Positions 11,282 to 59,240 of a stretch of DNA of 64,000 bases are shown one piece after another (the stretch's first letter is position 1; every line of letters starts with the position of its first letter). This stretch comes from Actinomycetota bacterium (GTDB taxonomy: Bacteria; Actinomycetota; Thermoleophilia; UBA2241), in the NCBI GenBank assembly GCA_003132585.1, contig PKYG01000097.1:1790-65789 (forward strand), written 5' to 3'. Below the pieces are notes generated by a model. The model worked only from the letters and a program-made list of their open reading frames with translations. It searched no databases and was not told the origin of the DNA. A program made the position numbers and the translations under genes.

Positions 11282-11844
11282 AGCGAGGCCTCGGCAAGCT
11301 CGCTGAGGATGTGCTCGATCACAATGTGTGCCTCCTGAGTGCGCGCGGTGTCGGTGCTGGGCACGGCGAGGAGCACGTCGCAGACGCCGGCGAGCCGGCC
11401 GCCGCCCTCGCCGGTGAGCGCGATCACCCTGAGGCCGCCGGCGCGCGCCGCGGCGGCGGCCTTGAGCACATTCGCGCTCTCGCCGCTGGTGGAGATCGCG
11501 AGCAGCACGTCGCCGGCGCGGCCGAGCGCCGCGACCTGCCGCGCGAAGACCTCGTCGAAGCCGTGGTCGTTGGCGACCGCCGTGACGATCGACGTGTTGG
11601 TCGTGAGTGCGATCGCCGGCAGGGCGCGGCGCTCGAGCCGGAAGCGGCCGACGAACTCGGCGGCGACGTGCTGGGCGTCGGCGGCGGAGCCGCCGTTGCC
11701 GCAGACCAGCAGCTTGCCGCCGGCCGAGAGCGAGTCGTGGATGAGCGCGTGCGCCCGGCAGATCTCGGCGCTCAGCGCCGAGACTGCCGCCATCACGCGC
11801 TCATGCTCCGCCAGGCGCTTGGCGACGATGCTCACACCGTCCAT
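11275..11844 (-). CDS. gmhA: Phosphoheptose isomerase (SIS domain).
   Basis: MDGVSIVAKRLAEHERVM... LLVCGNGGSAADAQHVAAEF... AISTSGESANVL SIS motifs. True start ATG at 11844. Longer ORF-track extension is an overlap artefact. Confidence 0.8.
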   Translation of the reverse strand: MDGVSIVAKRLAEHERVMAAVSALSAEICRAHALIHDSLSAGGKLLVCGNGGSAADAQHVAAEFVGRFRLERRALPAIALTTNTSIVTAVANDHGFDEVFARQVAALGRAGDVLLAISTSGESANVLKAAAAARAGGLRVIALTGEGGGRLAGVCDVLLAVPSTDTARTQEAHIVIEHILSELAEASLC

Positions 11845-24894: not shown

Positions 24895-26078
24895 GGGACT
24901 ACAAGTGGAGACTGCAGGAGAACGTCATCAGTGACGCAGACCTGGAGCTGCTGGTGCACTTCATAAGGACGACCAAGCGTTTCACGCAGTTCACAAAGGT
25001 GCGTGAGTTCGAAGAGGCATTTGCTGCGTGGCAAGGATGCAAATACTGCATCATGGTCAACTCGGGCAGCTCCGCCAATCTCGTGGCCGTGGCCGTGGCC
25101 AAGGAGATGCATGGTTGGTCAAGCGGTGACGAAGTGCTCGTGCCTGCGGTGACCTGGCCAACTACGGTGACGCCGGTCATGCAGCTAGGCCTCAAGCCGG
25201 TCTTCGTCGACGTCAACCTGCGGGATCTTTCGTTCGACTACGATGCGCTGGAGAACGCAGTCACGCGTCAGACCAAGGCGGTCTTTGCACCGCACCTCCT
25301 TGGTTTTCCTGCAGATGTTGCCCGCCTCAAGGCCGTCTGCGCGAGTCACGGGCTGATTCTTCTTGAGGATTGCTGCGAATCTCAGGGTGCGGTGGTCGAA
25401 GGAGCCAAGGTCGGGAATCACGGTTTGGCCGGCACCTTTAGCTTCTACTGGGGCCACCATATGACTACGGTCGAGGGCGGGATGATCTGCACCAACGACG
25501 ACGAGGTCCGGGATCTTGCTCTGCTGAAACGCTCACACGGGCTGGCCCGAGAGCTGCCGCAGGACGCTCACGCTGCCTTGCGTCGGCGCTACTCAGACGT
25601 CGTGTTTGACTTCCTCTTCCTGACCGACGGCTTCAACGTTCGCAACACAGAGTTCAATGCTGTCCTCGGGTTGGCCCAGCTCGCTCGCTTGGACGACTTC
25701 ATCCGCATCCGCAACCGCAACTACACACGGTTCCTGGAGATCTGTACACCTTTTGAAGACGAACTTATTCTTCTTCGCGGTTTGGGCATGAGCGCGTTTG
25801 TGCTGCCTTTCGTCTTTCGCGACGTGGCTCGCAAGACGGCCTTTGAAGCCATTCTTCGGCGAGCGGGCATCGAATCACGCCCCTTGATCAGCGGTAATCT
25901 CCTGCGGCAGCCGGTGTTCTCGACGTTTGGCGAGAGCTGCGACTTCCCCAATGCGGAGTATCTGCATCTGCATGCTTTCTACATCGGGAACAACCAGTTC
26001 GTCGAGGCGGAGCGACTTGCGGCGCTTCAGGAGCTGATGGGAGCATTCTTCGCGCGCCCGACCGGGGTTGCCCGCTAG
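24891..26078 (+). CDS. DegT-family protein with His replacing the PLP-lysine. Candidate PMP-dependent sugar 3-dehydratase (E1/RfbH/ColD-like).
   Basis: MVNSGSSANLVAV ... FSFYWGHHMTTVEGGMI, contrasting with FSFYANK / FSFYPGK in the two bona fide aminotransferases of this window. ATG 24891 in ATGA overlap. Confidence 0.65.
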   Translation: MRDYKWRLQENVISDADLELLVHFIRTTKRFTQFTKVREFEEAFAAWQGCKYCIMVNSGSSANLVAVAVAKEMHGWSSGDEVLVPAVTWPTTVTPVMQLGLKPVFVDVNLRDLSFDYDALENAVTRQTKAVFAPHLLGFPADVARLKAVCASHGLILLEDCCESQGAVVEGAKVGNHGLAGTFSFYWGHHMTTVEGGMICTNDDEVRDLALLKRSHGLARELPQDAHAALRRRYSDVVFDFLFLTDGFNVRNTEFNAVLGLAQLARLDDFIRIRNRNYTRFLEICTPFEDELILLRGLGMSAFVLPFVFRDVARKTAFEAILRRAGIESRPLISGNLLRQPVFSTFGESCDFPNAEYLHLHAFYIGNNQFVEAERLAALQELMGAFFARPTGVAR

Positions 26079-26982
26079 CCATGACGAGAGCGCCTTGGGA
26101 CGGGCATCACTAGTGGGAGCTCATGCCGATACGGAAAGGCCAAGCGTCCCTTGGACCTATGTCGTCGGGCCCAAGAGAGGATGGTTTGACCTCCGCCTGC
26201 GAGCAGTGTGGGCTGCACGTGGACTCGTTCGGCTGTTCGTCTGGCGGGACTTCGTGGCCCTCTACAAGCAGACAGTGCTCGGGCCACTGTGGTACGTCGT
26301 GCAGCCATTGCTGACTACAGTGGTGTTCACAGTCGTATTTGGTCGAATCGCGAGTCTCCCCACCGATGAGTTGCCACAGTTCCTCTTCTATATGTCCGGC
26401 ATCGTGATATGGACCTACTTCGCGGGGTGCCTAACGAAAGTGTCCCTCACGTTCATCAGCAACACGCAGTTGTTCGGGAAGGTCTATTTCCCGCGCCAAA
26501 CGGTCCCGCTTTCGCTGGTGGTTTCGAACCTCATCACCTTTGCGGTCCAGTTGGCTCTCCTGATGGGCTTCATCGTTTACTTCGTGATCGTGGGAGGCGC
26601 GGTGCACCCCAATGCGTACGCTCTCTTACTCCCCGTATTGGTTCTGATGACGGCTGCACTTGGATTGGGCGCTGGACTGGTCGTGACGTCGGTCACGATC
26701 CGATATCGCGACCTTCAATACCTGCTTACCTTCGGCGTCCAGCTTGCGATGTTCCTGGCACCGGTTGTGATGCCGCTTTCGAGCGTTCATGGAAAGCTCC
26801 GATGGCTGATGATCGCCAACCCGATGACATCCATCGTGGAGAGTTTCCGCTTCGGACTTCTGGGCGCGGGGGAAGTCAACCCTTGGCAGTTGGCCTTTAG
26901 TGCCGGCGTTGCGGTGGCGTTATGCGTCGTAGGGTTGGGTCTGTTCAACCGAGTAGAGCGGACCTTTATGGACAGCGTATGA
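26068..26982 (+). CDS. wzm: ABC-2 type polysaccharide export permease.
   Basis: Six predicted TM helices (FLFYMSGIVIWTYFAGCL, LVVSNLITFAVQLALLMGFIVYFVIV, etc.), ABC-2 family layout. Start uncertain (TTG 26068 or GTG 26113). Confidence 0.75.
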   Translation: MPASHDESALGRASLVGAHADTERPSVPWTYVVGPKRGWFDLRLRAVWAARGLVRLFVWRDFVALYKQTVLGPLWYVVQPLLTTVVFTVVFGRIASLPTDELPQFLFYMSGIVIWTYFAGCLTKVSLTFISNTQLFGKVYFPRQTVPLSLVVSNLITFAVQLALLMGFIVYFVIVGGAVHPNAYALLLPVLVLMTAALGLGAGLVVTSVTIRYRDLQYLLTFGVQLAMFLAPVVMPLSSVHGKLRWLMIANPMTSIVESFRFGLLGAGEVNPWQLAFSAGVAVALCVVGLGLFNRVERTFMDSV

Positions 26983-28268
26983 CTCAGCATGCCGTTTCTG
27001 TTGAAGCCCTTTCGAAGTGCTATCAACTTGGCACTATCGGCACAGGCACGCTGCACGGCGATCTCAGCAGGGCGTGGGCGCGAGTTCGAAATAGGCCTGA
27101 TCCTTTCTCTGTGATTGGCAGTCAGGTACCCACTAAGACAGCCACGGGTCCGGCGTGGGCTTTGCGAGATGTGTCTTTCGAAGTCGCTGAAGGACAAGTC
27201 ATGGGAATCGTGGGTAGAAACGGTGCGGGCAAGACCACGCTTCTGAAGATCTTGGCTCGAATCACGGCGCCAACCTCGGGGGTGGCGAGAGTCCGTGGTC
27301 GGCTTGCCAGCCTCCTTGAGGTTGGAACCGGCTTCCACCCTGAGCTCACGGGTCGCGACAACGTGCTGTTGAGCGGCACACTTCTCGGGATGAGTAGGAG
27401 AGAGATAGCCGCGCGTTTGGACGAGATTGTGGAGTTCTCCGAGGTAGGCAAGTACTTGGACACGCCGGTCAAAAGGTATTCAAGCGGGATGTACGTGCGC
27501 CTCGCATTCTCGGTGGCTGCGCATCTGTCTGCTGAAGTGCTGCTACTTGATGAGGTCCTGGCAGTCGGGGATGTGGAATTCCAACGAAAGTGCCGAGCTC
27601 ACATACGGTCGCTCGCCGAAGATGAAGGTAGGACCATTCTCTTTGTCAGTCACAATCTGGCCGCCGTCTCTGAGCTTTGCCCACGAACGCTGCTGTTGGA
27701 TCAAGGTGCACTCGCGGCGAATGATTCAACGAGTGAGGTCTTGAGGTCATACGTTCAAGGACTGGGCTCAAGGGATCCCGGCGTGGATGTCTCGGATCCC
27801 GGACTGCGATCTCAGGCCTCTTTGGTGGATAGCTTGTTCAAATGGGTAGGTGTTGAAGTGCGCGGCATCGACGGCGAAATCCTGCCGGAAGTACCCTTCG
27901 GGCAGCCGTTTGAGGTGTCTCTGGTTGGCGAAGCCAGTGCCGATTGCCAGGACTTGCTGATCGGACTTGCGGTGGTGTCGAACATCAGAGGCGTCATTCT
28001 CACTACTCACCAGGCCTACAGCGGGCTGCCGACCTCATACGCCAAAGGACGGCACGAATTCCGCGTGCTGTTCGACCCGAATCTTCTCGCGCCAGGCGCC
28101 TATGACCTCACTGTCGACGTTTTGGGGCCAATGGTGAGGGATCAGATACCAGCGGCTCTTGAGCTGAGCATCATCGATGTCGGGGCCGGAACGCGCGGTA
28201 TCTGGGCAGTCCCAGGTAGAGACGGAATACTTGATGCCCCATGCTCCTGGGACCACTCGCGATGCTGA
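26979..28268 (+). CDS. wzt: ABC transporter ATP-binding protein Wzt with ~180-aa C-terminal carbohydrate-binding (Wzt_C-like) extension.
   Basis: Walker A GRNGAGKTTLLK, signature YSSGMYVRLAFS, Walker B LLLDEVLAVGD. Extra C-terminal beta-rich domain. ATG 26979 in ATGA overlap with wzm. Confidence 0.85.
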   Translation: MTQHAVSVEALSKCYQLGTIGTGTLHGDLSRAWARVRNRPDPFSVIGSQVPTKTATGPAWALRDVSFEVAEGQVMGIVGRNGAGKTTLLKILARITAPTSGVARVRGRLASLLEVGTGFHPELTGRDNVLLSGTLLGMSRREIAARLDEIVEFSEVGKYLDTPVKRYSSGMYVRLAFSVAAHLSAEVLLLDEVLAVGDVEFQRKCRAHIRSLAEDEGRTILFVSHNLAAVSELCPRTLLLDQGALAANDSTSEVLRSYVQGLGSRDPGVDVSDPGLRSQASLVDSLFKWVGVEVRGIDGEILPEVPFGQPFEVSLVGEASADCQDLLIGLAVVSNIRGVILTTHQAYSGLPTSYAKGRHEFRVLFDPNLLAPGAYDLTVDVLGPMVRDQIPAALELSIIDVGAGTRGIWAVPGRDGILDAPCSWDHSRC

Positions 28269-31021: not shown

Positions 31022-31512
31022 TCACAGTGGCCATACCCACTCTGGACCGCAAGCCGTATGCCCTCCGCGCGTTGAAGCCTTTGGCCCGGCAGACCGCCGA
31101 TGACTGCGCATCGTCCTGCCCATGTGCGGAGAAGGGACAACGATGACTTCCGAGCGAGTGTGCGGCCGTTGGGTGCCGGAGTCTCGGCTTGCGCGCTTCT
31201 GCTTGCGCGCTTCTGCCTTGGGCGTTGCGTGCGCATACAGGATGCATCTCCTGTTGTCGGGTCTACTCACCGCGGACCGACGCCGCGAACGGGCCAGCGC
31301 AACGTGGTTGCTGGGTTGGTGGGCAGTGCGCGCATCCTGTTCGTCGGCAGCCTCCTCGGTCTGCCAGATTCCCGGCGCTTCTGGATGATCGCGCGCTCGA
31401 TGAACGGCGCAGCCCGGCAGGTCTGCAGCCAGTATCGCCCCAGCATCCACGGCGCCATTGTTCGCGCCGCACCGGTCTCCGGTGATGGCTATCGGAGCGC
31501 GGCGGTGGCGGA

Positions 31513-33036
31513 ATGACTGGGCGCGTGCTCGTCCATTCTCGAGTTGCAACCGGGCTCTCGACACTCGTGGGTGGCTCGCTCCTTGCCGTCGTTTTGGGCT
31601 GGGCTGCGGTTGGTCACCACCAGAAGACCATCATCTTCCTGCTTGCTCCGCTGGCGCTGGCTCTGATTCTCCGAGCCGGCAGCAAGAACCGTTTTGCCAT
31701 CCTGTTGTTTGTGTCGGCGGCGATTCCCATTCTAAGCCGCAACATGCTTCCCTTGGGCGTGTTCTTCGGCTTGGCTCTGGTTGCTGCACTCGTCGTCGCG
31801 CATTGGACCAGTCGCGTCTCTTCCCGCGTCACCCACGGCATGGCCGTTGGCCTTCCACTCGTGCTCTTCTTGGGCTTGGGCATGGCGGCGATGCTCGTGA
31901 ACGGCGACGGCATGCGTGCCGGTGCGGTGTGCTTCACACCCGCGGTTTGGTACTTGGCTGCGGCAGCGTTCGTAAGGGGGCCACGTGAGGCTCTACGGGT
32001 CCAAGCGGCGTGCGCCATCGGGGGGTTGGTCTACTTGCTCATTGTGTTGGTTTCGGGGGCGCTGGGGTGGGGCGGCGCTTCTCTCTCGGCAGTGGCCGGT
32101 GATCCTGGGCAGACTGGGATGTCCAGATTGGGGGCGCAGGCCTGGACGCTGCACAGCAACTTGCTGGCCATCCAGTTCTATCCCACATGGCTCGCTACAC
32201 TTCTTGCTTTGGCGATGCCGGCAGCGTTTCTGCTGTTCTTTCGCGCGACCGGCCGTTGGGGCGCGAGGTTTTGGTGGGCCCTCGCCGGGCTGTCCTTGGC
32301 GTATGGTCTTCTTCTCACAGGCGCCCGAGCGGGAGCAACTGGCGCACTTGTCGGCACCAGCGTCACTCTGGTCGCTTCGGGGCGGTTCAGAATCCGTCGA
32401 GTACTGGTATGGTCGGCTACAGCAGCAGTTTCGGTCCTTGCCTTTGGCTTTCTCCTCATGCGCCTCCTGAGCAGCGTTGTGCCGTCCGCGAACGTGGCTC
32501 GCATTGTCGCGGTATTGTCCACCGCACACGACCCAACCGGGAATCTGGCAGGCAGGCTCAGGATCTTGCGCGAGACGCTGGCTCTCGCGAGCGGCGCCCC
32601 TTTGGGTCACGGCTTCGCCTACTGGAGTCTTCGTGGCAGAGACGATGCAATCGTCTTCGCGATGCTTCTCAATGGAGTGGGGCCTCTTGCGGTTCTCTGC
32701 ATGACCGCCCTGCTACTGGTTCTTCTGACGGCATTCGTCAGGCGGGCACGAGGTTCGGTTTCGGATGGGCGCGACGCAGTCGCGATAGGCTTGGGAGTGC
32801 TGGTTGCGGGGTTCTTAGCTGGAGTAGGCAGCCACAGCGTCCTCATTGAGCCGGTTCAGAGCTTCATCTTCTGGGGGTTCGCGATGACGGCGTACTGGGC
32901 GGCGCATCCGCTTGAGCCCATAGGATCGGCTCGATCCCTCCAGCTGAGCACCGGGGAGCTACGTCCCCAAGGAGTCGGCGGAGTGCGCACTGCCCCAGCC
33001 GGCAGCTCGGTCTCTGGCACAAGGCACAGGTCGTGA
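31513..33036 (+). CDS. O-antigen-ligase/polymerase-family (Wzy_C domain) polytopic membrane protein, copy 1.
   Basis: ~12 TM helices. LLLTGARAGATGALVG (Wzy_C signature-like) and periplasmic loop with HGFAYWSLRGRDDAIVFAMLLNGVGPLA. ATG 31513. Confidence 0.6.
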   Translation: MTGRVLVHSRVATGLSTLVGGSLLAVVLGWAAVGHHQKTIIFLLAPLALALILRAGSKNRFAILLFVSAAIPILSRNMLPLGVFFGLALVAALVVAHWTSRVSSRVTHGMAVGLPLVLFLGLGMAAMLVNGDGMRAGAVCFTPAVWYLAAAAFVRGPREALRVQAACAIGGLVYLLIVLVSGALGWGGASLSAVAGDPGQTGMSRLGAQAWTLHSNLLAIQFYPTWLATLLALAMPAAFLLFFRATGRWGARFWWALAGLSLAYGLLLTGARAGATGALVGTSVTLVASGRFRIRRVLVWSATAAVSVLAFGFLLMRLLSSVVPSANVARIVAVLSTAHDPTGNLAGRLRILRETLALASGAPLGHGFAYWSLRGRDDAIVFAMLLNGVGPLAVLCMTALLLVLLTAFVRRARGSVSDGRDAVAIGLGVLVAGFLAGVGSHSVLIEPVQSFIFWGFAMTAYWAAHPLEPIGSARSLQLSTGELRPQGVGGVRTAPAGSSVSGTRHRS

Positions 33037-34184
33037 TGTCACAGTTCGAGAGCCAGGCCTTGGAAGTATCCGTTGTTATTCCCACACGTAATCGAGCGCC
33101 GAGGGTTGCCGCTCTACTTGACTCGATCGCCAGGGTCCGCGAGACGCAACTCGCATGGGAAGTCATCGTCGTGGACAACGGATCGACCGACAGGACGGCT
33201 ACGGTTGTGCGTCAGGCTGCGAGTATGGCTCACATGCCGATCAGGTACGTGAGCGAGCCTGAGCCCGGACTCCACGCTGGCCGGCACCGCGGTGCTCGGG
33301 AGGCGCGCGGTGAGGTTGTCGCCTATCTGGACGACGACACGCAAGTGCACGAAGACTGGCTGCGAGGCGCAGAGCCTGTGCTCCGGGGGCTGGCCGACGC
33401 GGTGGCTTGCAGGATCCTTCCACAGTGGGAAGCGCCGGTCACCTCATGGCTCGAGGACCTGGTGAGCACGGGAGTGTACGGACCCCTCACCCTCTTGGAC
33501 CTTGGCGAGGAGCAACGTGAAGTAGAACCGGAGTTCGTCTGGGGTGCGGGCTTCTTCATCCGGAGGTCTCTTGTGTTCGACCTGAATGGTTTCCATCCCG
33601 ACAGCATGCCCGCTGAGCTCCTGCGGTTCCGGGGGGACGGCGAGAGCGGGCTCATGCGCAAGTTCGCGGCTGCGGGGCATCGTGCGTGGTACGACCCCTC
33701 GTCGGTGGTTGAGCATGCCATGTCCACTAAACGGATGACCCACCTGTACTTGCGCGAACGGTTCTATCGCCAAGGTATCAGTGACTCGTTCGCTGAGCTG
33801 CGCGCGGAGCTCCTATCGCGCGTTGACCTCGGACCAGCGGCTGGGCTTGCTGAGAGCCCGCGGCCGGCAGCCAGGACTCAGCCACGCGTTGCGCCTGAAG
33901 GCTTGCTCCATGTGACGCCGCGGCGGATGGCCGGCGGAATCCGGCGTGGTCGGGCCTGGGCTTCGCGCAACTTGACGGCGTCGCGCAGATCGAGGTTGCG
34001 GTTTGACGAAGACATGCGGCGTGCGGCCCTGCGAGGTCGTGATTTCCATCGGCGAGCAGCGGAAAGCGATACGGGTGTCATGGCGTGGGTGAGACTGCCG
34101 CACTACATCGACGTGTCGCTGTCTGATTTCTCCTCCTTCGCAGGGCCACTTGATTCCCATGACGTGACGCGACCCGAAGGATGA
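33033..34184 (+). CDS. GT2 (GT-A fold) glycosyltransferase, copy 1 of a paralogous pair.
   Basis: VSVVIPTRNRAPRVAALLDSI...VIVVDNGSTDRT...YLDDDT (DxD). Paralog of 38764..39804. Confidence 0.75.
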   Translation: MMSQFESQALEVSVVIPTRNRAPRVAALLDSIARVRETQLAWEVIVVDNGSTDRTATVVRQAASMAHMPIRYVSEPEPGLHAGRHRGAREARGEVVAYLDDDTQVHEDWLRGAEPVLRGLADAVACRILPQWEAPVTSWLEDLVSTGVYGPLTLLDLGEEQREVEPEFVWGAGFFIRRSLVFDLNGFHPDSMPAELLRFRGDGESGLMRKFAAAGHRAWYDPSSVVEHAMSTKRMTHLYLRERFYRQGISDSFAELRAELLSRVDLGPAAGLAESPRPAARTQPRVAPEGLLHVTPRRMAGGIRRGRAWASRNLTASRRSRLRFDEDMRRAALRGRDFHRRAAESDTGVMAWVRLPHYIDVSLSDFSSFAGPLDSHDVTRPEG

Positions 34185-34220
34185 ATGCGTGAGCGGCATT
34201 CGGGCTGAGGAAAAGACTCG

Positions 34221-34514
34221 ATGAAGAAGGCAGATGAGGCTGGTCACCGGAGACTGGCCCTGTTCTACCCGTACCGGTACTGGGCGACGTTCGCCGCGCT
34301 CGACGACCTGGGTGCACTCCTGGGGCAGGCGGGGTGGCAGATCGATCTCTTGGCGCCGGCAACGCCCGATCCCGCAAGTCACGTCGAAGGTTCGTTTCGT
34401 GGGATCAAGTCAGGAGCGAGCTTGGCTGCAGCAAGGCCCAGGACAGTGCCCGCTGCTACAGCCCAACGAATCCGCGGAGACATGAGGCGGCCGCAGGATG
34501 CCAAGGTGCCGTAG
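34221..34514 (+). pseudogene. N-terminal fragment of a GT1-like glycosyltransferase paralogous to 39970..41190 (truncated after ~97 codons).
   Basis: LALFYPYRYWATFAALDDLGALLGQAGWQIDLLAP vs VGVIYPYAWPLPNLVDVGALLRDRGYVVDLLAA. Premature stop, no remaining C-terminal domain. Confidence 0.4.
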
Positions 34515-34559
34515 GGGCCTCAGCCAACCAACATTCGACGAGCGAGACCGACAAAGGAA

Positions 34560-35071
34560 TCACCGTTTCCTCCGAATTCGAACGTGAAGCCAGTCGGTGT
34601 CATGATGGTTCTGCCGTTCAAGCAAGAGCAGGTCGGCCTCTGGCAGGCTCCCGAGTACGTTTTCGTATCGAATGGAGCGATTCCATGCAAGAAACTCGTT
34701 GCCCCTAGCGCTGAAGTTCCATTGATGAAGCTCTCGATAGCCTTCCTTTTCCCCCTCGTTTTCGACTTGCCAGATCGCCAACCAGCAAGAAGGTCTGACA
34801 ACGTGCAGGCAGGCGCGAAAGGCCTGCAGAGGGTCGTGTCCGTGATCGAGTGAGTTGTGGGCGACGACGAGGTCAAATGACGACTCAGGGAAGGCCGAGT
34901 CGATGCTCTCTGCATCGCCCGGCATGACGGGCACCAGCTGCTGCAATGGAAGGCGAGCAAGGATACGTTCGTAGTCGCTGGCCAGCGGGTCGACCGCTGT
35001 GATTTCAATAAGCCGTTCCGGCCATTCCTTCCCGATGACGGTGAAAGGTCCTGAGCCAACATCTAGTATTT
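34560..35071 (-). pseudogene. 3' portion of a small class I SAM-methyltransferase gene interrupted by the IS21-family element. 5' portion (start ATG at 37312) lies on the other side of the IS.
   Basis: Frame opens immediately with motif I LDVGSGPFTVIG right at the IS boundary. Downstream FDLVVAHNSLDHGHDP...VVRPSCWL (motifs II/III). No start codon upstream of motif I. Confidence 0.55.
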
Positions 35072-35160
35072 TGTGTCACTGCCGGTGTGAAACTGACCCA
35101 CTATTGTGTCAACGCCGCCCCAATCCTGAACAGTTTTCGCCGCTCCAATTCTGAACACTC

Positions 35161-35931
35161 TCAGCCGTCGACCTCACCCTGTAGCACCTCCTTGCCCTTG
35201 CCTTTGAGCCGGTAGCTGTCGCCGCGCAGGACGAGCACCTCGGCGTGGTGCACGAGACGGTCGACCAATGCCGCCACGGCCACCGGATCGCCGAAGATCT
35301 CCGCCCAGCCCGAGAACGTTTTGTTCGAGCTCACGATGATCGAAGAGCGCTCGTAGCGGCTCGAGACCAGCGCGAAGAACAGCGCCGCCGCCTCGGGGTC
35401 GAAGGGGATGTAGCCGACCTCGTCGACGACGATCAGCGGCAGACGGCCGATGCGCTCGAGCTCCTCGTCGAGACGGCCCTGTCGTTTGGCGGCGGCAAGG
35501 CGCGCCACCCATTGCTGCGCCGAGGCAAAGGCCACCCGGTGGCCGCGGCGCGCGGCCTGCACCCCGAGGGCGATCGAGAGGTGCGTCTTGCCGGTGCCCG
35601 GCGGCCCTAAGAAGATCACGTTCTTGTGCTCGATCAGGAAGTCGAGCTGGGTGAGGTGCAGGACGGCCTCGCGCTTCAGCGAGCGCTGGAAGGCAAAGTC
35701 GAAGTCGTCGAGCGTCTTCACCTGGGGGAAGCGTGCCGCCTTGACGCGCGCCGCACCGCCGTGGCTCTCACGCGCGGCGACCTCCTCACCGAGCACCGCC
35801 GCCAGGTAGGCCTCGTAGCTCCAGCCCTCCTCGCGGGCGCGCTCGGCCAGCGTCTCGGCCAACTCGCGCACCCGCGGCGCCTTCAGGGCCCGGGCGCAGA
35901 AGGCGACCTCGCTGGCCGCCTTGGCGCTCAC
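35161..35931 (-). CDS. istB: IS21-family transposition helper ATPase IstB.
   Basis: Walker A GPPGTGKTHL, Walker B LIVVDEVGY. GTG start in GTGA overlap with istA stop. Confidence 0.85.
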   Translation of the reverse strand: MSAKAASEVAFCARALKAPRVRELAETLAERAREEGWSYEAYLAAVLGEEVAARESHGGAARVKAARFPQVKTLDDFDFAFQRSLKREAVLHLTQLDFLIEHKNVIFLGPPGTGKTHLSIALGVQAARRGHRVAFASAQQWVARLAAAKRQGRLDEELERIGRLPLIVVDEVGYIPFDPEAAALFFALVSSRYERSSIIVSSNKTFSGWAEIFGDPVAVAALVDRLVHHAEVLVLRGDSYRLKGKGKEVLQGEVDG

Positions 35932-37152
35932 GAGCTCACCCCGAGCAGAGCGTCGTAGCGGGCGAGATCGACCGCCTCAAGCTCGGGCTCGCCGCCCTTG
36001 AGGCGTCGCTGGGCCTCCTGCGCAGCGGCCAGAGCTCTCATGTGCTCGTGGTCGCGCACCACGTCGGCCGGCACGTAGCTGTGCGCATGGCGGGCAATCT
36101 GGCGCGCTTCGCAGAACAGGGAGAGCTCAGAGAGGCCGAGGTGCACGCACACCCGCCGCCCGGCGTAGCCCGGCGGCAGCGAGTAGTCGACGCCGGCCAC
36201 GCGCGCGAAGCCGTCGCGGCTCACCCGCACCTCGAGGCGCCGGTCGGTGGCCGGCGCCGGGTCGGGCAGAGGGGCGAGCTCGGCGCGCTCGACGGCGAGC
36301 GCCTCCGCCACCCGCGCGCCGAGACGCCGGAGGTAGCGCGTCCAGGCGACCTCGCGCGTCCAGGCATCGCTCTGCGCCTGCAAGGTCGGCGAGGCCGGCA
36401 AAGCGGCGCAGCGGCAAGAACGAGCTCTCCAAGTAGCCGTTGGTGCGCTCCACCGATCCCTTGCTCTGCGGGCGCGCGGGGGGCAGCACGATGCAGCCCA
36501 TGGCGAGCGCGCCGAGCAGGCCGGCGAGCTCGTCGACGGGGCGCGGACGTGCATGGCCACGACGCACGACGAGGCTCGTGTCGTTGTCGACGACCAGCTT
36601 CGCCGGCACGCCGCCGAGGCGCGCGAGGCAGCCGAAGAGGGCGGGCACCGCGTCGGCCGTGGTCTGCGAGTGCGTGTAGACCACGGCGTGGGCGGCCGAG
36701 AAGGGCAGCGTGGCGACCAGGCCGTGGGCGCGACGGCGCGCGCCCTTGCCCACGGGCACGTCGATGCCGGTATCCCACCAGTCGGCCTGCAAAAGCTCGC
36801 CCGGCGCGTAGCTCGTGCGCCCGAAGTCACGGGCGGCCTTGAACTGCGGGCGCACCGCCGCCAGGTAGTCCTTCAAGATGGTGATGCCGCCAGCGTAGCC
36901 GGCGCGTTGCAGATGCTCGCGGATCACCGTCGCCGGCACGCTTGCATCTTCGCTGAGCATCTCGAGCACGGCACCCTTGAACGGGTCGAGCAGAGATGCG
37001 GCCGGTTCGCGCTCGTAGGCTGGGGGCTCTGCCAGGGCCAGCAGCCGGTAGACCGTCGTGCGGCTCATCTCCAGCCGCCTGGCGATCGCTCGCTTGGAGA
37101 GGCCTTCGCGATCGAGCCTGCGGGCCTCCGACCAATCATGCACCTGATACAC
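35928..37152 (-). pseudogene. istA: IS21-family transposase IstA, disrupted by a +1 frameshift near 36380.
   Basis: N-terminal frame (HTH plus DDE core ...SKGSVERTNGYLESSFLPLRRFAGLADL) switches to another frame for the C-terminal part (QAQSDAWTREVAWTRYLRR...). Junction sequence GCCGACCTTGCAGGCGCAG. Confidence 0.75.
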
Positions 37153-37275
37153 CCCTTCCTCCCTTGTGCGCCTTGAAGTTCACACAAGGGTTCGTCACCA
37201 GTCCTTCACTGCGGCGTGGACTGTCCAGTTTTCGACCGGCGAAGAGTGTTCAGTTTTGCAGCGGCGTCGACACAA

Positions 37276-37312
37276 GGGCCGTGCTCTCGTCTGATGGCCA
37301 GAGAAGAGTCAT
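37276..37312 (-). pseudogene. 5' end (MTLLWPSDESTA) of the IS-interrupted methyltransferase gene.
   Basis: ATG at 37312 reads in frame into the 34560..35071 segment if the 2204 bp between the IS inverted-repeat termini are removed. Confidence 0.45.
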
Positions 37313-37363
37313 CGCACTTGCAAGGGTGTTACGACAAGAAGCCGTGGGCGGGGTGAAACTGCC

Positions 37364-38767
37364 ATGACCGCTGGAGCAATCGGCCGCCTGCGGATGCCAG
37401 CGTATCTGGCTATGACGATTCTGATGGCCCTCATTGCCCTGCGTGTGGGTTGGGCGGTCTCCGGTCAGCACTACAAGGTCCTCGGTGGCCTGCTGCTCGT
37501 CCCCGCGTTGGCCGCTCTGGGGTTGCTGGGGCGGAGCGTGCGCTTCAAGCTTCTGCTTCTCGCGGCTGCGCTGACCCCTCTTCAGACGCCCTCTCTCCTT
37601 CCCTACGGCTTGTCGATGAGTGAGCTGCTCCTGCTCGGCCTAATCGCTGTGCAATGGACTCCCGCGGTGTCCCGCCGCCTCAGCAGAGGCCTGGGGGTGC
37701 TGGTCCCCCTGATGTTCTTTCTTACGCTGGGTCTGCTCGCCGGCTACCTGCACGGAGAGCTCGGTGCATCGCAAGTCGTGTGCGTCACCCCGTTACTCTG
37801 GTTTCTGGCCGCAGCTGTCTTCGTCAGGAGTCCGCGAGACGCGTTGAGAGTCCAGGTAGCGTGCATTTTGAGCGCGGCCCTCTATGTTGCCATCGTGCGT
37901 CTTGCCTCGGCCCTCGGTTATGGCGGGACGGTGTTCGCCGTCGCGGCTGGGTCCGCATCTCGACTGGGGGCAGCGGGTTGGGCACTTGACGTCGGGCCGG
38001 TGTCCGTGCGGTTCTGGTCCACATGGCTTGCCGCGCTCGTGGGTGTAGCAATGCCAGGCGCGGCGCTCTTTTTCGTGCGCGCCAAAGGCCATGCTTTGGC
38101 GAGGTACTCGTGGCTCGCGATCATGGCGCTCTTCGTATACGCAATCGTGCTGAGCGCAGGTCGAGGCGGCGCCCTGGGTGGAGCCATCGGCATCGCAGTC
38201 GCTCTTCTCACTTGTGGGCGGTTGTCACCGAGGCGCGTGCTCTTGGCATCAGCCGGGCTTGGGGTCTTTGGAATGGTTTTTCAGTCCATCCTTACGAAGG
38301 CGGCACTCAGCGTCTTGCCAGGCTCGAACCTGTCGCGTATCGGGACCCTCCTGAGATTCTCGACTGACCAGACGGGCAACTTCCAGTACCGCGTCAGAGT
38401 GTTGCAGGAGACTGTTGCCGGCGTGGCGGAGGCTCCTTTTGGCCGCGGTTTCAACTATTGGTACAGCCGTGGCGTGGATGATCCGATTGCGTATGCCATG
38501 CTCTTGAACGGCGTCGGAGTGCTGGGTGTTCTCGCCTTCGGTGCGCTCATCGCCGTGCTGGCAGCGACCTACATGCGACGAGTGGCACATGCGACTGGTG
38601 CTGCGCGGGATGCTATAGCGGTCGCCCTTGGCACGTTGGTGGCTGCCATGGTGGCCGGCGGCTCGAGCCACACTGTCTGGATCGCGCCAGTGCATACGTT
38701 CCTTTTCTGGGGTATCTTGATGAGCACCTACTGGGGCGTCGTCACCCAAGCGAGGCGCTCGGATTGA
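37364..38767 (+). CDS. O-antigen-ligase/polymerase-family (Wzy_C domain) polytopic membrane protein, copy 2.
   Basis: Collinear similarity to 31513 gene (VRSPRDALRVQVACILSAALYVAIV vs VRGPREALRVQAACAIGGLVYLLIV; VLSAGRGGALGGAIG vs LLTGARAGATGALVG). Confidence 0.6.
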   Translation: MTAGAIGRLRMPAYLAMTILMALIALRVGWAVSGQHYKVLGGLLLVPALAALGLLGRSVRFKLLLLAAALTPLQTPSLLPYGLSMSELLLLGLIAVQWTPAVSRRLSRGLGVLVPLMFFLTLGLLAGYLHGELGASQVVCVTPLLWFLAAAVFVRSPRDALRVQVACILSAALYVAIVRLASALGYGGTVFAVAAGSASRLGAAGWALDVGPVSVRFWSTWLAALVGVAMPGAALFFVRAKGHALARYSWLAIMALFVYAIVLSAGRGGALGGAIGIAVALLTCGRLSPRRVLLASAGLGVFGMVFQSILTKAALSVLPGSNLSRIGTLLRFSTDQTGNFQYRVRVLQETVAGVAEAPFGRGFNYWYSRGVDDPIAYAMLLNGVGVLGVLAFGALIAVLAATYMRRVAHATGAARDAIAVALGTLVAAMVAGGSSHTVWIAPVHTFLFWGILMSTYWGVVTQARRSD

Positions 38768-39804
38768 TTACCGTGGCCGTTCCAACCTATCGTCACCCAG
38801 ATTACGCGATGGATGCACTACGGAGCTTGGTCGACCAGCGGTTCGCCCCCGCCTTCGAGATTCTCGTGTTGGACAATGCATGCGACGAGCGGCTCGCACA
38901 GCGCGTGAGACGGATGGCCGAGCGAAGCAGCGCACGGGTCGAGTACGTCGGCGTGCCGGCGATTGGCCTGCACAGAGGTCGGCACGAGGCTGCCCGCAGA
39001 GCCCTTGGGGACGTTCTGGCGTACGTGGACGACGATGTCATTGCCGAGGAAGGCTGGCTCGCTGGCCTTGCTGAGGCTTTTGAGGATCCGAGCGTGCATC
39101 TGGTGGGCGGCCGAAATCTGCCGCTGTTCGAAGCGGAAGTGCCGTCATGGCTGGGAGCCTTCTGGTCCCCCGGCGCACAGCAGTGCGGGCTGCTGACACT
39201 GATCGACCTGGGCAGCGAATCGAAGGATGTGGATCCTCTGCTTGTATGGGGTGCGAACTTCGCGATCCGCAAGGCCACGCTGCATCAAGTCGGTGGTTTT
39301 CACCCTGATGGTTTCCCGTGGGAACTGTGCAGGTTCCGTGGCGATGGGGAGACGGCAGTCTCAAGAGAGATCGCGCGCCTACGGCTGCGAGCCGTGTATT
39401 GCCCACAGGCTACGATCCATCACCGGGTGTCGCCGGACCGGCTGACCGAAGCGTACTTCAAGCGACGTGAGTTCCTGCAGGGTGTGTCTGACTCGTATTT
39501 CGCAGCGCGCCTGAGCGGAGGCAAGCCGGCGGCAGTGCCTCGGACGTCGCGGATCCGCGCGTTGGCAAGCGGAGGCAAGGCTGCCATGCGAAGCTGCTTC
39601 CCGGTCAATGGAGTGCCGTCTCAGTGGCGCGCAGTCCGTGAGCGAGTCTGGAGGACACACTCGGAGGGCTATCGGTACCACCAGGAGGTGCTCCGGAGGG
39701 ACGAGAGCCTGCGGGCTTGGGTGACCTTGCCGGACTACTGGACGTCCGACGTGTCTCGATTCGACGGCAAGGCGCCCAGCCCGGGGGGGACACATGCGAG
39801 TTGA
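38764..39804 (+). CDS. GT2 (GT-A fold) glycosyltransferase, copy 2.
   Basis: VAVPTYRHPDYAMDALRSL...ILVLDNACDE...YVDDDV. TTG start overlapping upstream TGA. Confidence 0.75.
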   Translation: MITVAVPTYRHPDYAMDALRSLVDQRFAPAFEILVLDNACDERLAQRVRRMAERSSARVEYVGVPAIGLHRGRHEAARRALGDVLAYVDDDVIAEEGWLAGLAEAFEDPSVHLVGGRNLPLFEAEVPSWLGAFWSPGAQQCGLLTLIDLGSESKDVDPLLVWGANFAIRKATLHQVGGFHPDGFPWELCRFRGDGETAVSREIARLRLRAVYCPQATIHHRVSPDRLTEAYFKRREFLQGVSDSYFAARLSGGKPAAVPRTSRIRALASGGKAAMRSCFPVNGVPSQWRAVRERVWRTHSEGYRYHQEVLRRDESLRAWVTLPDYWTSDVSRFDGKAPSPGGTHAS

Positions 39805-39969
39805 GCTGGATGGCGTCGCGCTGGGCTTGGCCTGCCTGATGCGATGTAGCCACCCCATGAGAGGCCTCGCTGCAGCACCTGTGTCGGGGGTCTACTCCGG
39901 CGGCAGGTATCCTTGGGTCTACCCAGTCGCTGCGACGGCCGGCAACCGACGATCACCGCGAGGTCTCTG

Positions 39970-41190
39970 ATGGATCGAGTCGGCGTGATATATCCGTACG
40001 CGTGGCCCCTCCCGAATCTCGTCGACGTTGGGGCTTTGCTTCGCGACCGCGGGTACGTCGTCGATCTTCTTGCTGCGCGAGAGGCGGTCGGCAGTTCCTC
40101 CGAATGGAGCGGTCAGCTTTCGTGCGATCTTGTCGGCCATCCGGGCGTCATGACTGGACGTTTCGTGCATGCGCCAGGCTGGATGCGGGGTAGAGCGCAG
40201 AGGCCGTATCGGCGTGCCGCATTCCTCGTCGGTCGCGCGTCGCTTGTCCACAGGATGCGACATCGCCACGAGTCTGACCGCTACGTGGCGCTGGTCGGGT
40301 GCGATGCAGAGGGCGTCCTTGAGGCGGCGCGACTGGCCAAAACGCTGCCCGTCCCGTATCTCTATTGGTCGCTAGAGATAGCTACATTCCACGCGGACAT
40401 GACACCGGCGGAGCGTGCGTTGAAGGATCTAGAAACGGTAGTCAGTCGAAACGCGGCGGCCGTCATCGTTCAAGATCAATGGCGGGCCCGGTTGCTCGCG
40501 ACGGAGAACGGACTCGAGGGAGTCAGGACTGTCTACTTGCCCAACTCACGACGGCAAGTGACACGCCTGCCTCGAGAGACCTCGACGCTACGAGCGCGCC
40601 TAGGCATTCCGCAGGATGTGCATCTGGTTATCTACACGGGCTTTCTGGCTGACTGGGCAGAGTGTCGGGGCATTGCCCAGAGCGCCGCTCATTGGCCCAA
40701 CGGAACAGCACTCCTGTTGAATTCCCGAGCCGCCGCTGACAGGTCGCTTGCCGACACGTTCAGGAGCCTGGCACCACCGGGGCGCGTGTATGTCAATCTC
40801 GACCCGGTACCCGACTCGGAGTACGGGGCTCTGCTGCGCTGTGCGTCCGCCGGCGTCGCCCTGTACTCCCCAAAGGAGTCGCCGGCAGGCTTCAGAGAGA
40901 ACCTGGAGGTCGTTGGCTTTTCCTCGGGCAAGATCGCCGCCTACCTGCAGTTCGGATTGCCCGTGATCGTCGGCATGAACACAGGTCCGCGGGAATTGGT
41001 TGAGGAGTTCGACTGTGGAGTCTGCGTGGAGGATCCGCACGGGATAGGGGCCGCCCTCCGCCGAATACTCGCGGACCGTCCGGCATTCTCCGAGCGAGCG
41101 CGTACCTGCTTCGCCCAGAGGCTCGCACTCGAGCCTGGCGTGAGCGCTCTTGCGGATTGCCTGGACTCCTTGCGTGATCAGAGATGCTGA
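39970..41190 (+). CDS. GT1/GT-B-like glycosyltransferase.
   Basis: 406 aa, ATG 39970. Two-Rossmann-like organisation with C-terminal ...GLPVIVGMNTGPRELVEEFDCGVCVED (GT-B nucleotide-binding-like). Confidence 0.55.
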   Translation: MDRVGVIYPYAWPLPNLVDVGALLRDRGYVVDLLAAREAVGSSSEWSGQLSCDLVGHPGVMTGRFVHAPGWMRGRAQRPYRRAAFLVGRASLVHRMRHRHESDRYVALVGCDAEGVLEAARLAKTLPVPYLYWSLEIATFHADMTPAERALKDLETVVSRNAAAVIVQDQWRARLLATENGLEGVRTVYLPNSRRQVTRLPRETSTLRARLGIPQDVHLVIYTGFLADWAECRGIAQSAAHWPNGTALLLNSRAAADRSLADTFRSLAPPGRVYVNLDPVPDSEYGALLRCASAGVALYSPKESPAGFRENLEVVGFSSGKIAAYLQFGLPVIVGMNTGPRELVEEFDCGVCVEDPHGIGAALRRILADRPAFSERARTCFAQRLALEPGVSALADCLDSLRDQRC

Positions 41191-41404: not shown

Positions 41405-42016
41405 ATGAGCGCTCGCATCATTCGATGCCTCTGGCTCGTGTGGGATCAGATTCGAGCCCAGCGGAATGCTCAGGTCGTGGACGCGATACGCTCAAGCCTT
41501 GCTTCCTGCGGCCCCGAGACCCTGATCCATCCGTCTGTTGTCGTCGTGGCTCCCGAGAACGTCCGCATCGGTGAACATGTGCTGGTCGGCCCCGGAGGGT
41601 GGATCTCGGCGGTCAATACGTCCATTAACAACATAGGTGGGCACGTGATGATGGCGCCACAGGTCGCTCTGGTGGCAGGAAACCACAACACCTCGGTCGT
41701 CGGGCGCTTCATGGACGAAGTGGACGAGAAGCGTCCTGAGGATGACCAGCCCATCGTCATCGAGGATGATGTGTGGCTCGGCATGCGCGCGATCGTGCTC
41801 AAGGGGGTGACAATCGGCCGAGGCTCTGTTGTCTCAGCCGGATCCGTCGTGACCCACGACGTTGCCCCGTACTCCGTGGTCGCCGGGGTTCCCGCGCGCT
41901 TGGTGCGCGTGCGCTTTGACCGGGAGCAGGTCGAAAGCCACGAGCGAGTATTGTATAGCCAAGTGATCACGATGACGACGAATCCCGATAGGCCGCCAGT
42001 TGGTGATACTCCGTGA
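41405..42016 (+). CDS. Hexapeptide-repeat (left-handed beta-helix) acyl/acetyltransferase (sugar O-acetyltransferase candidate).
   Basis: Repeated [LIV]-G-x-x-x-x hexads: IGEHVLVGPGGWISAV, VWLGMRAIVLKGVTIGRGSVVSAGSVV. Confidence 0.75.
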   Translation: MSARIIRCLWLVWDQIRAQRNAQVVDAIRSSLASCGPETLIHPSVVVVAPENVRIGEHVLVGPGGWISAVNTSINNIGGHVMMAPQVALVAGNHNTSVVGRFMDEVDEKRPEDDQPIVIEDDVWLGMRAIVLKGVTIGRGSVVSAGSVVTHDVAPYSVVAGVPARLVRVRFDREQVESHERVLYSQVITMTTNPDRPPVGDTP

Positions 42017-43302
42017 AGGTCCTTCACCTCACCTGCAACGATGCTCGGACTGGCGGTGCCAACGCACTGCACAGGCTCCACGTATCATTGTTGGCCGCGG
42101 GCGTTGACTCACGTGTCATTCTGGGGGCCGACGAGGACAAGAGCCCGAGCGAACGACACATTCCGCGCTCGTTTGCCTGGAGGATCGCCGACAAGCCGTT
42201 CCGGATCATAGCTGAGCATACCGGTCTACACGGTGTTGTTCGGCCCTCGTTCCGACTGTGGTGTAGAGCCATTGACGCTTTCAACCCGGATGTCGTCCAC
42301 ATCCACTGGACGTACTCGGGTGGCACGCCTCCGCTGGTCAGCCTGCGAAGTCTTGCCGCTGCGTATCCGATCGTATGGACCTTCCACGACATGTGGGCCT
42401 TCACGGGTGGCTGCACAATCTCCAAAGGCTGCGAGCGTTGGCTATCAGGATGTGGCTCGTGTCCTCTGCTAGCAACAGGCGAAGGATCCAGCGCGATGAT
42501 GCCGATGCCGTGGGACCTGACCGCCGTCCAGTGGAAGATCAAGAGGTGGGCCTTTCGAGGGATTCCGGTGACGGTCGTCGCACCATCGCCGTGGATGGCC
42601 GACCTTGTGCTCCGCAGTCCCATCATGAGCGGGGCCATGGTGGAGTGTGTGCCCAACCCGCTCGATACTGCCGTGTTTGCGCCGCGCGACAGAAGAGCGG
42701 TGCGCGTGCGCCTCGGCCTGCCATTGTCGGCCAAGGTGGTTTTCTACATCGGGAAGCCAGAGCCTGGCAGTGTGTTCTCGTATGAGGGTAGGGTGCCGCT
42801 CTTGCTTGAGACCCTGAGGCTTGTGCGAGTTGACGATCCCGACCTGGCGCGCAACATGCAGCTGCTCATTGTGGGAGGGATGGGGGAGGAACTCATCCGC
42901 TCATCGGGCTATCAAGGGGTGGCAATTGGTTCACTGAACGATGAATCAGAGATGGCCGATTGCTTGTCGGCAGCCGACGTGATGATCAACACCACCCAAT
43001 ATGACAATCTGCCGGGTGTCGTCCAAGAGGCGATGAGTTCCGGGCTAGCCGTCGTGGCCTCCAGGGTCGGAGGCCTGCCGAACATGATCGACAATGGGGT
43101 CTCGGGCATCTTGGTCGACCATACCTCCCCTCGGGCTTTCGCGGACGCGGTCCAGATGGTATTGACGGATACTGATCTCCGCAACCGGCTGGGGTCGCAA
43201 GCCCGCGTGGTGGCCATAGAACGCTATGATTTCGGTCGCGTCGCGGCTGACATGATCTCGGCCTATGAGCGGTCCCGCGAAACACGCGCAGACATTGCCT
43301 AG
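42013..43302 (+). CDS. GT4 (GT-B, 'glycosyl transferases group 1') glycosyltransferase.
   Basis: MKVLHLTCNDARTGGANALHRL ... C-terminal EGLPNMIDNGVSGILV (E-x7-E-like motif). GTG 42013 in GTGA overlap. Confidence 0.8.
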   Translation: MKVLHLTCNDARTGGANALHRLHVSLLAAGVDSRVILGADEDKSPSERHIPRSFAWRIADKPFRIIAEHTGLHGVVRPSFRLWCRAIDAFNPDVVHIHWTYSGGTPPLVSLRSLAAAYPIVWTFHDMWAFTGGCTISKGCERWLSGCGSCPLLATGEGSSAMMPMPWDLTAVQWKIKRWAFRGIPVTVVAPSPWMADLVLRSPIMSGAMVECVPNPLDTAVFAPRDRRAVRVRLGLPLSAKVVFYIGKPEPGSVFSYEGRVPLLLETLRLVRVDDPDLARNMQLLIVGGMGEELIRSSGYQGVAIGSLNDESEMADCLSAADVMINTTQYDNLPGVVQEAMSSGLAVVASRVGGLPNMIDNGVSGILVDHTSPRAFADAVQMVLTDTDLRNRLGSQARVVAIERYDFGRVAADMISAYERSRETRADIA

Positions 43303-59145: not shown

Positions 59146-59240
59146 CGGCATGCTGCTACTGATAGGATGATGATGCTTCATCCCTCGATCCCCCGGAGAT
59201 CAGCTTGACTGAGGTGAACGGCCTCAACGGTGAGCCGCAG

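Follow-up and report, generated by a model that had tools for sequence, protein, structure and literature searches.

The 64-kb stretch of contig PKYG01000097.1 analyzed here (the window, to which all positions refer) contains two collinear gene modules, each centered on a polytopic membrane protein (A1 and A2) that is encoded together with a soluble glycosyltransferase (B1 and B2) and followed by a truncated or a complete gene for a second glycosyltransferase (C1' and C2). Judged from their sequences, A1 and A2 represent a rare, cross-phylum family of WaaL/Wzy-like proteins without a conserved histidine. The safest statement about their function is that they are outer-face enzymes for a glycan linked to undecaprenyl pyrophosphate (Und-PP), coupled to their B partners in a pathway that exports by the ABC transporter Wzm/Wzt. 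Our more specific reading is tentative, with a probability of about 0.42: A would be an extracytoplasmic transferase that delivers the ABC-exported, lipid-linked glycan en bloc to its final acceptor. The two modules consist of the following genes:

31513..33036, + strand: A1, polytopic membrane protein of 507 amino acids (aa).
33033..34184, + strand: B1, soluble GT-A/GT2 glycosyltransferase.
34221..34514, + strand: C1', 97 codons, N-terminal remnant of a C-type GT-B gene.
37364..38767, + strand: A2, 467 aa, second member of the A1 family.
38764..39804, + strand: B2, GT2 partner of A2; the A2 stop and the B2 start overlap by 4 nt.
39970..41190, + strand: C2, probable GT-B-fold glycosyltransferase, with an alternative TTG start at 39913.

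All six open reading frames (ORFs) that a previous sequence-only reading of this DNA had listed for the modules are present where it had placed them, in identical order and on the same strand in both copies. Pairwise alignment by BLASTP showed that the A proteins (42.2% identity, 441 aa, E 4.5e-95) and the B proteins (35.6% identity, 365 aa, E 9.7e-58) are significantly homologous. The identity of 40–50% that had been estimated by eye is therefore accurate for A1/A2 and slightly too high for B1/B2. The products of C1' and C2 share 43% identity across 35 aa only (E 3e-5). Against a hidden Markov model (HMM) of six C proteins from other loci, C1' scores 23.7 bits at positions 6–92 (the N-terminal part), with recognizable similarity to the C family over approximately its first 50 residues, and no further piece of a C gene could be found in any frame of 34151–37363. 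Since C1' matches only the N-terminal part and no other C piece remains, it is a true N-terminal remnant, as the earlier description of a 97-codon fragment had implied. We found no DNA-level similarity between the module copies, and their synonymous sites are saturated (pS ~0.70), which indicates that the copies diverged long ago. The collinear, diverged paralogy of the two modules is real and far beyond chance.

A1 and A2 match the Wzy_C profile (PF04932) with 24.0 and 22.7 bits, respectively, and thus stay below its gathering score of 31.7. Both matches span only positions 2–108 of the 149-position profile, and NCBIfam contains no family for either protein at E <= 0.01. Their relatives, too, mostly show a weak Wzy_C match or none. 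The membership in the O-antigen ligase family that had been proposed for A1 and A2 is not upheld, since both proteins miss the Pfam gathering threshold as well as the histidine discussed below. The label Wzy_C holds in the wider sense of the WaaL/Wzy superfamily, given the fold match to WaaL (PDB 7TPG) and the presence of both Und-PP-binding arginines, and does not hold in the Pfam sense. An exhaustive HMM search of 1.84 billion representative proteins identified 70 relatives at E <= 1e-3, 48 of them at E <= 1e-10, and scanning 185,579 species genomes with a sequence pattern recovered a single A relative in a Chloroflexia metagenome-assembled genome (MAG). Word-indexed searches, either with A2 or with an alignment of 33 sequences, are blind to this hydrophobic family and returned only A2 and one relative; a first scan of the GTDB genome collection returned no A relative. 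Large A alignments contain no stretch conserved enough to serve as a search pattern, and a pattern from a four-sequence alignment led to the one Chloroflexia MAG and to three metagenome loci.

An AlphaFold2 model of A2 computed with 33 family sequences (pLDDT 86.6, pTM 0.87) shows the GT-C_B fold class shared by WaaL, Wzy, and SEDS proteins. The best PDB match of this model by Foldseek is WaaL (7TPG, E 1.7e-5, TM 0.54/0.61), followed by the RodA/FtsW structures 6PL6 (E 1.4e-3) and 8P1U (E 1.6e-3), and no other PDB match is meaningful. When the family profile was compared with PDB sequences, WaaL 7TPG was again found, as the sole significant match (E 6e-5). By way of the positive-inside rule applied to the model helices, A2 is predicted to contain about 14 helices with the N-terminus inside; by homology to this model, A1 would also contain about 14.

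R267 and R343 of A2 align with R191 and R265 of Cupriavidus metallidurans WaaL, which correspond to R215 and R288 of E. coli WaaL (hmmsearch, hhalign; residue equivalences were read from the printed alignments). Equivalents of these two Und-PP-binding arginines occur in 30/33 (R267) and 33/33 (R343) A-family sequences. The conserved polar residues of A2 in the 33-sequence alignment are R200, R267, R343, Y365, D372, E/D373, Y377, and W449; on the model, all of these except W449 appear to be located in loops or at helix ends on the outer side. A1 has kept all equivalents (R205, R272, R348, D377-D378). The element R200-X10-G211 of A2 may correspond to the RX10G loop motifs of Pseudomonas aeruginosa Wzy, a resemblance that would speak for a polymerase.

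Ahead of the LNGTG helix, D372 and the following Glu or Asp (373) are each conserved in 32 of the 33 sequences. D372 sits 11 residues before the invariant G383, a distance that mirrors the H-X10-G spacing of ligases, and this aspartate may assume the role of the catalytic histidine. The His motif in the large outer loop of WaaL (H336/H338 in E. coli) is invariant among 19 WaaL sequences, and the histidine of WaaL/PglL/PglS-type enzymes is the proposed catalytic base, for example H324 in PglS (PMC12800693). The suggestion that A1 and A2 could be something noncanonical has been borne out to the extent that they belong to a rare family in which the catalytic histidine of every characterized ligase or O-oligosaccharyltransferase is missing. 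A different histidine, H436 of A2, belongs to the outer turn that leads into the last helix. Its column contains mostly Glu or Asp, within an SSES motif, and His in A1, A2, and one other member; with the canonical histidine missing, this residue may be functionally relevant.

The assignment of the B proteins is straightforward: B1 and B2 match PF00535 with 94.9 and 57.3 bits (threshold 23.3), and the DDD motif of GT2 (GT-A) enzymes is invariant in the B family. At their C-termini these proteins continue into a conserved, family-specific helical region of about 100 aa, and no transmembrane segment was found in B1 or B2. Compared with GT2 enzymes in the PDB, the B profile matches chondroitin synthase (E 4.5e-24) and PglI (E 5e-16) better than DPMS/ArnC. 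C2, previously called GT1-like, scores 18 bits against the Pfam GT1 families and hence remains below their threshold (26.4 bits). The PDB matches of the C-family profile are all GT-B enzymes (E 3e-6 to 1e-3; 6KIH at 3e-6, Gtf3-like 3QKW at 3e-5), which points to a GT-B fold.

To place the modules in a wider context, we recovered the loci of twelve other A-family members (GC content 0.42–0.66). One of them, L022, encodes an orthologue of A1; the identity of A1 and A2 to the A proteins of the remaining loci is 24–35%. A B-type GT2 gene adjoins A in 10/10 flanked loci (L007, L008, L012, L014, L015, L019, L020, L021, L022, and L024), and a C-type GT-B gene adjoins A in L007, L008, L011, L015, L019, L020, L021, and L024. 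The usual order is B-A-C, with A-B in the window, L014, and L022. In one lineage B and A are naturally fused to a protein of 833 aa (L024 10001–12502; also L025 and L026). This fusion occurs on 18 contigs from several samples, and a sequencing artifact can be rejected on this ground. It retains every conserved residue of the A family and is consistent with a cytoplasmic N-terminus of A. The fusion locus is arranged as Wzm - Wzt - sulfotransferase - [B-A] - C - acyltransferase in a sulfotransferase-rich neighborhood.

Wzm/Wzt genes lie beside A in L007, L008, L012, L014, and L024 which, together with the window, amounts to 6/8 adequately flanked loci. Given this recurrence we reject an accidental adjacency, and the coexistence of Wzy_C-like proteins with an ABC-transporter pathway, to which attention had been drawn from the window alone, is a real and conserved arrangement. 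In L014 the stop codon of Wzt abuts the start of A. The Wzm proteins of the window and L012 are 61% identical, the A proteins only about 30%. The Wzt of L012 contains an unambiguous Wzt_C domain (E <= 1e-5), and its gene lies beside genes for a methyltransferase and an APH-type kinase, a combination that corresponds to WbdD-type capping as in E. coli O9a and to export of a complete polymer. An acyltransferase and a GT4 glycosyltransferase often come next after the A/C module in the related loci: orthologues of the window acyltransferase (39–53% identical) lie beside A/C in L015, L020, L021, and L024, and L008 contains a hexapeptide-repeat gene at the equivalent position, identified by Pfam only; a 46% identical GT4 orthologue is encoded in L021, and in L008 and L015 the module is likewise followed by GT4 genes. 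Among the genes called in the related loci there is no Wzx, MOP, or unexplained polytopic protein.

A Wzz/kinase-type protein accompanies the module in the window, L008, and L012; the window protein and the product of the gene directly downstream of L012 A are 42% identical (513 aa). Wzz/kinase and WbaP-type genes are absent from the flanks of L007, L015, L019, and L024. The compact L008 locus (Chloroflexia MAG CAWHAM010000008.1, 622–16246) starts with genes for a WbaP-type transferase, a Wzz/GNVR protein, a kinase-type ATPase, Wzm, and Wzt, and continues with two unknowns, B, A, C, an acyltransferase, a GT4, and an asparagine synthase. Its equivalent of the window Wzz/P-loop protein is encoded by two separate genes. 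Several split genes in L008 probably result from long-read indel errors.

The window itself encodes the corresponding export and assembly functions:

26068..26982, + strand: Wzm, ABC-2 permease (PF01061, 63.8 bits).
26922..28268, + strand: Wzt, ATPase (PF00005, 71 bits).
41405..42016, + strand: hexapeptide-repeat acyltransferase (Hexapep Pfam matches).
42013..43302, + strand: GT4 glycosyltransferase (PF00534 and PF13439).
55943..57433, + strand: large WbaP-type phosphoglycosyl transferase, candidate initiating enzyme (Bac_transf, 192 bits).
59205..60878, + strand: Wzz/GNVR plus P-loop protein of the co-polymerase/tyrosine-kinase type (Pfam matches).

Both modules lie on a lower-GC island (58–64%) at about 18–52 kb inside a window of 66–72% GC. 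This island is a large glycan-biosynthesis cluster with nearly all genes on the + strand, and with Wzm and Wzt it contains the transporter that defines an ABC-transporter-dependent pathway. The C-terminal extension of Wzt resembles Wzt_C weakly (21.3 bits, gathering score 30.4). Upstream of the modules, on the same strand, are sugar-nucleotide modification genes, Wzm, Wzt, and two PF13524 glycosyltransferases. Downstream of the GT4 gene, after copy 2, follow several methyltransferases and further glycosyltransferases and, beyond these, a stretch of host-like GC that encodes a radical-SAM enzyme, two initiating transferases of the WbaP type, and the Wzz/GNVR/P-loop protein. The locus contains the co-polymerase and the WbaP-type transferase of a Wzx/Wzy pathway and lacks Wzx, although a flippase may be encoded in another part of the genome. 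None of the approximately 60 window ORFs scanned has a Polysacc_synt, MOP, or Wzx match in Pfam. A six-frame hydropathy scan for polytopic ORFs detected only GT87, a GtrA-fusion protein, Wzm, A1, A2, and the two initiating transferases, which leaves no unexplained polytopic ORF in any frame of the 64-kb window. A LytR-CpsA-Psr (LCP) match is absent from the Pfam results for the scanned window ORFs and the related loci, to which no targeted search was added. A scan of the window with Rfam gave no match.

Glycan pathways that depend on ABC transporters must end with transfer of the lipid-linked polymer to a final anchor. In bacteria without lipopolysaccharide (LPS), LCP enzymes or, in the case of S-layers, Wzy_C oligosaccharyltransferases are generally credited with this transfer. 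We propose that A catalyzes this step. A WbaP-type transferase would start the glycan on the lipid carrier, soluble glycosyltransferases including B (GT2) and C (GT-B) would build it in the cytoplasm, and the product, probably capped, would be exported by Wzm/Wzt. A would then move the glycan en bloc from the lipid carrier to an acceptor, for which a protein, a wall polymer, or a glycolipid would be conceivable, with the two conserved arginines holding the pyrophosphate and the Asp-Glu pair standing in for the histidine base of classical ligases. Of this picture, homology, fold, conserved residues, gene linkage, the fusion, and the lack of Wzx are observations; the donor, the membrane side, the en-bloc mode, the catalytic part of Asp-Glu, and the acceptor are inferred. 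Since A is physically coupled, and once fused, to B, each A/B pair probably matches a single glycan or acceptor structure. The window would then contain two pairs of different specificity, copy 1 without its C gene and with an IS21-associated rearrangement between the copies.

A role as ligase is favored because export of a finished polymer follows from the type of exporter and from the capping genes, because every such export pathway needs a final transferase, and because A is the sole conserved outer-face enzyme in the loci examined, none of which encodes a repeat-unit flippase. In addition, S-layer glycan clusters provide an exact precedent in that they combine a WbaP homologue, cytoplasmic glycosyltransferases, a methyl cap, Wzm/Wzt, and the Wzy_C oligosaccharyltransferase WsaB (PMC2943079). 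The same pathway logic underlies WsaB/WsfB of the slg clusters in Geobacillus stearothermophilus and Paenibacillus alvei, and there are parallels in gene content: a TPR protein is encoded beside L015 A as WsaA is beside WsaB, and L008 contains an asparagine-synthase homologue, as does P. alvei with wsfA. In contrast to A, WsaB/WsfB contain a recognizable Wzy_C domain, and conserved B/C partners or a fusion have not been described for WsaB; the likeness drawn here is one of pathway and gene content. WaaL is close to A as the best structural match, as the only significant PDB sequence match, and in both Und-PP arginines, and in many O-antigen systems WaaL, too, takes over once an ABC transporter has exported the glycan. 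However, A lacks the His motif and has about 14 helices instead of 12–13, the outer loop that follows its second arginine falls about 17 residues short of that in WaaL, and its Pfam score is sub-threshold. WaaL is neither encoded as a unit with a GT2 nor fused to one, and the host of A1 and A2 is probably a monoderm actinobacterium without lipid A-core, as judged by IstB relatives, GT87, and GC only.

Several observations weigh against a ligase. No column of the 33-sequence A-family alignment contains His at more than 36%. Alignments with hhalign, against E. coli WaaL alone and against a 19-sequence WaaL profile, cover only the two-arginine core, and the A-WaaL profile alignments end just short of the His motif (hhalign end P358/P303). 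The Wzz/kinase and large WbaP-type genes in the window, L008, and L012 are hallmarks of Wzy polymerization that a ligase does not explain. WaaL is the only solved Wzy_C-type structure, so that closeness to WaaL cannot separate ligase from polymerase. Finally, no gene for an S-layer protein or another acceptor could be identified in the window. The idea of two ligases attaching the polymer to two different acceptors finds no direct support.

The main alternative, to which the absent histidine and the genes of Wzz/kinase and WbaP type point, is that A1 and A2 are Wzy-type polymerases of repeat units, with Wzm/Wzt instead of Wzx flipping the Und-PP-linked unit. We regard this as rather unlikely. 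The WbaP-type transferase, B, C, and GT4 would build the unit, the Wzz/kinase protein would control polymerization outside, and the two A/B pairs would correspond to two linkages or repeat-unit variants. Like Wzy, and unlike all characterized ligases, A has no conserved histidine, and none is needed in a Wzy polymerase, which belongs to the same superfamily and is likewise associated with Wzz/kinase and WbaP-type proteins. L008 resembles a capsule-type locus with Wzm/Wzt at the usual place of Wzx, the Wzz/kinase gene that follows L012 A directly is the one related to that of the window, and the covariation of A with specific glycosyltransferases, including the B-A fusion, fits an enzyme bound to a repeat unit. 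On the other hand, the Wzt_C-like domain and the capping pair of kinase and methyltransferase in L012 are typical of export of a finished polymer, and the modules of L007, L015, L019, and L024 have no Wzz/kinase gene beside them. Literature searches uncovered no precedent for a hybrid of Wzm/Wzt with Wzy and a tyrosine kinase, which is weak negative evidence. The enterococcal polysaccharide antigen (EPA) locus combines an ABC-exported rhamnan with decorations made by Wzx/Wzy and encodes EF2169, annotated as an O-antigen ligase (PMC7188991). EPA shows a Wzy_C-type protein and an ABC transporter in one locus; it differs in that such dual-chain loci encode Wzx, of which the 64-kb window and the related loci are devoid.

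A broader formulation, which we consider unlikely, is that the gene set of WbaP-type enzyme, Wzz/tyrosine-kinase protein, Wzm/Wzt, B, A, C, and acyltransferase constitutes a fourth, hybrid route of glycan assembly, in which Wzm/Wzt replaces Wzx and a GT2-coupled enzyme without the histidine polymerizes or ligates outside; the window would then contain two specificity variants of this route. It is very improbable that A is a GT-C enzyme adding single sugars to the exported polymer from an undecaprenyl-phosphate sugar made by B, as modeled on three-component extracytoplasmic glycosylation systems: the translational coupling and fusion of B and A do recall membrane-anchored polyprenyl-phosphate sugar synthases, and the outer-face Asp-Glu pair is typical of GT-C catalytic bases, but B has no transmembrane segment and a profile closer to glycan-extending GT2 enzymes than to DPMS/ArnC, the module contains no GtrA-type flippase, and the known members of the fold class all use pyrophosphate-linked donors, in line with the two retained arginines. 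RodA and FtsW share with A the fold class and the Und-PP-linked donor and are the second-best structural matches. They rely on an acidic catalytic residue. In contrast to WaaL they have no detectable sequence-level similarity to A, and the context of A is glycan biosynthesis rather than the machinery of cell-wall elongation or division.

How the two copies arose can be approached by comparison with L022. A1, its L022 orthologue, and A2 form one clade (100% bootstrap). B1 and its L022 orthologue group with the B genes of L008 and L019 (99.5% bootstrap), apart from B2; B1 is 44% identical to these B proteins and 36% identical to B2. Both trees were computed by neighbor-joining from few taxa and are indicative only. 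Since the A and B trees are discordant, the modules probably did not originate by a simple en-bloc duplication. The A1-B1 pair of L022 is 82% identical in DNA to window positions 31329–34194, and this homology ends at 34194. There, the pair directly adjoins SIS/HAD genes (L022 1–1574) that in the window are located at about 11 kb, so that about 19 kb of the window cluster is absent at L022; it is followed by a different, seemingly full-length C-type gene with a C-like N-terminus. 

The description of the locus as a tandem duplication of a three-gene module captures the collinear paralogs and the sister relationship of A1 and A2, and fails for B1, which stands apart from B2, and for the different context at L022. 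A single in situ tandem duplication of the A-B-C block, with copy 1 merely decaying, is doubtful in our view. The same gene order and strand, the mutual closeness of A1 and A2 (41–42% identity, compared with at most 31% to other members), the truncation of C1', and the insertion sequence (IS) beside it would agree with such an event. The affiliation of B1 and the different neighbors and C-type gene of the L022 pair would not, and decay is at odds with the state of A1 and B1. Both genes are intact, their conserved residues are kept, and the ratio of nonsynonymous to synonymous substitutions (dN/dS) relative to the L022 orthologues is 0.50 for A1 (70% identical) and 0.27 for B1. This purifying selection also allowed us to reject the possibility that copy 1 is wholly dead. 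The modules are better described as two specificity cassettes, put together in a hypervariable glycan locus by both duplication and exchange.

The 2.85 kb between the copies, the content of which had been overlooked previously, are occupied by a truncated methyltransferase gene and an IS21 element; a small ORF precedes copy 1:

31316..31516, + strand: small ORF of 66 codons with two hydrophobic segments, overlapping the A1 start.
34560..35069, - strand: remnant of a class-I S-adenosylmethionine-dependent methyltransferase (PF08241, E 4e-11).
35072..37274, - strand: IS21-family insertion sequence, 2203 bp, 70% GC.
35161–35931, - strand: istB, intact (IstB_IS21, 246.7 bits).
35928–37152, - strand: istA, with one frameshift near 36383.

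The methyltransferase domain begins at residue 2, at the IS junction, and the reading frame remains open up to the IS end. Since this frame is open to the first motif at the IS edge, the 5' part of the gene is gone. Neither the rest of the window nor the related loci contain a paralogue of the remnant. The IS21 element has terminal inverted repeats TGTGTC...GACACA. A tblastn comparison with Streptomyces IstA places the frame switch of istA at aa 254, and IstB shares 62% identity with copies from Streptomyces, Arthrobacter, and Mycobacterium. A target-site duplication is not visible in the sequence, which is consistent with a rearranged or inactive copy. Six metagenome/SRA contigs are 100% identical to the window, the IS21 element included. 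Two of these, from independent assemblies, break at 35074, the left end of the IS, which is the expected behavior at the border of a repeat. The end of copy 1 is therefore a double scar, with truncated C1' followed by a truncated methyltransferase beside the IS, and A2 starts only 89 bp beyond the IS end. The small ORF ahead of A1 is called as a gene in L001, and a 69-codon ORF is likewise placed in L022. It has no Pfam match, and no such ORF is present ahead of A2.

Several other genes in the window are worth recording. The high-GC left flank encodes a GT2, a 734-aa GtrA-domain protein with about nine further helices, and a GT87-like protein (6624–8330, 8340–10544, and 2–1165), which look like a separate extracytoplasmic glycosylation system. 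Genes for SIS (GmhA-like), HAD phosphatase, and GHMP kinase proteins (10541–12845, - strand) suggest a heptose-nucleotide pathway. A pair of thiamine-dependent E1 alpha/beta dehydrogenase genes (21798–23854), unusual in glycan clusters, opens the sugar-modification genes and suggests a two-carbon branch or an acyl modification of a sugar. A radical-SAM/SPASM enzyme (52565–53539) is encoded between glycosyltransferase genes, and the glycosyltransferase at 45720–46811 contains a GT10 (fucosyltransferase) domain at its C-terminus. The cluster includes at least seven scattered methyltransferase genes (at 16000, 19070, 20436, 43633, 44587, and 47924, plus the remnant).

New here is a module that is conserved, fused once, and tied to Wzm/Wzt, yet falls outside the criteria of the O-antigen ligase family. 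The A family recurs with Wzm/Wzt beside the module in distant bacteria and seems to provide a terminal step of this export route that has yet to be described. If A is a ligase, it would represent a new catalytic solution, possibly with a new acceptor, and a possible enzyme for glyco-engineering. If A is a polymerase, Wzm/Wzt would be able to feed Wzy-type polymerization, and the textbook division between these pathways would be blurred. In either case the two diverged A/B pairs, one of them by an IS-associated scar, illustrate how glycan specificity may change through the swapping of modules.

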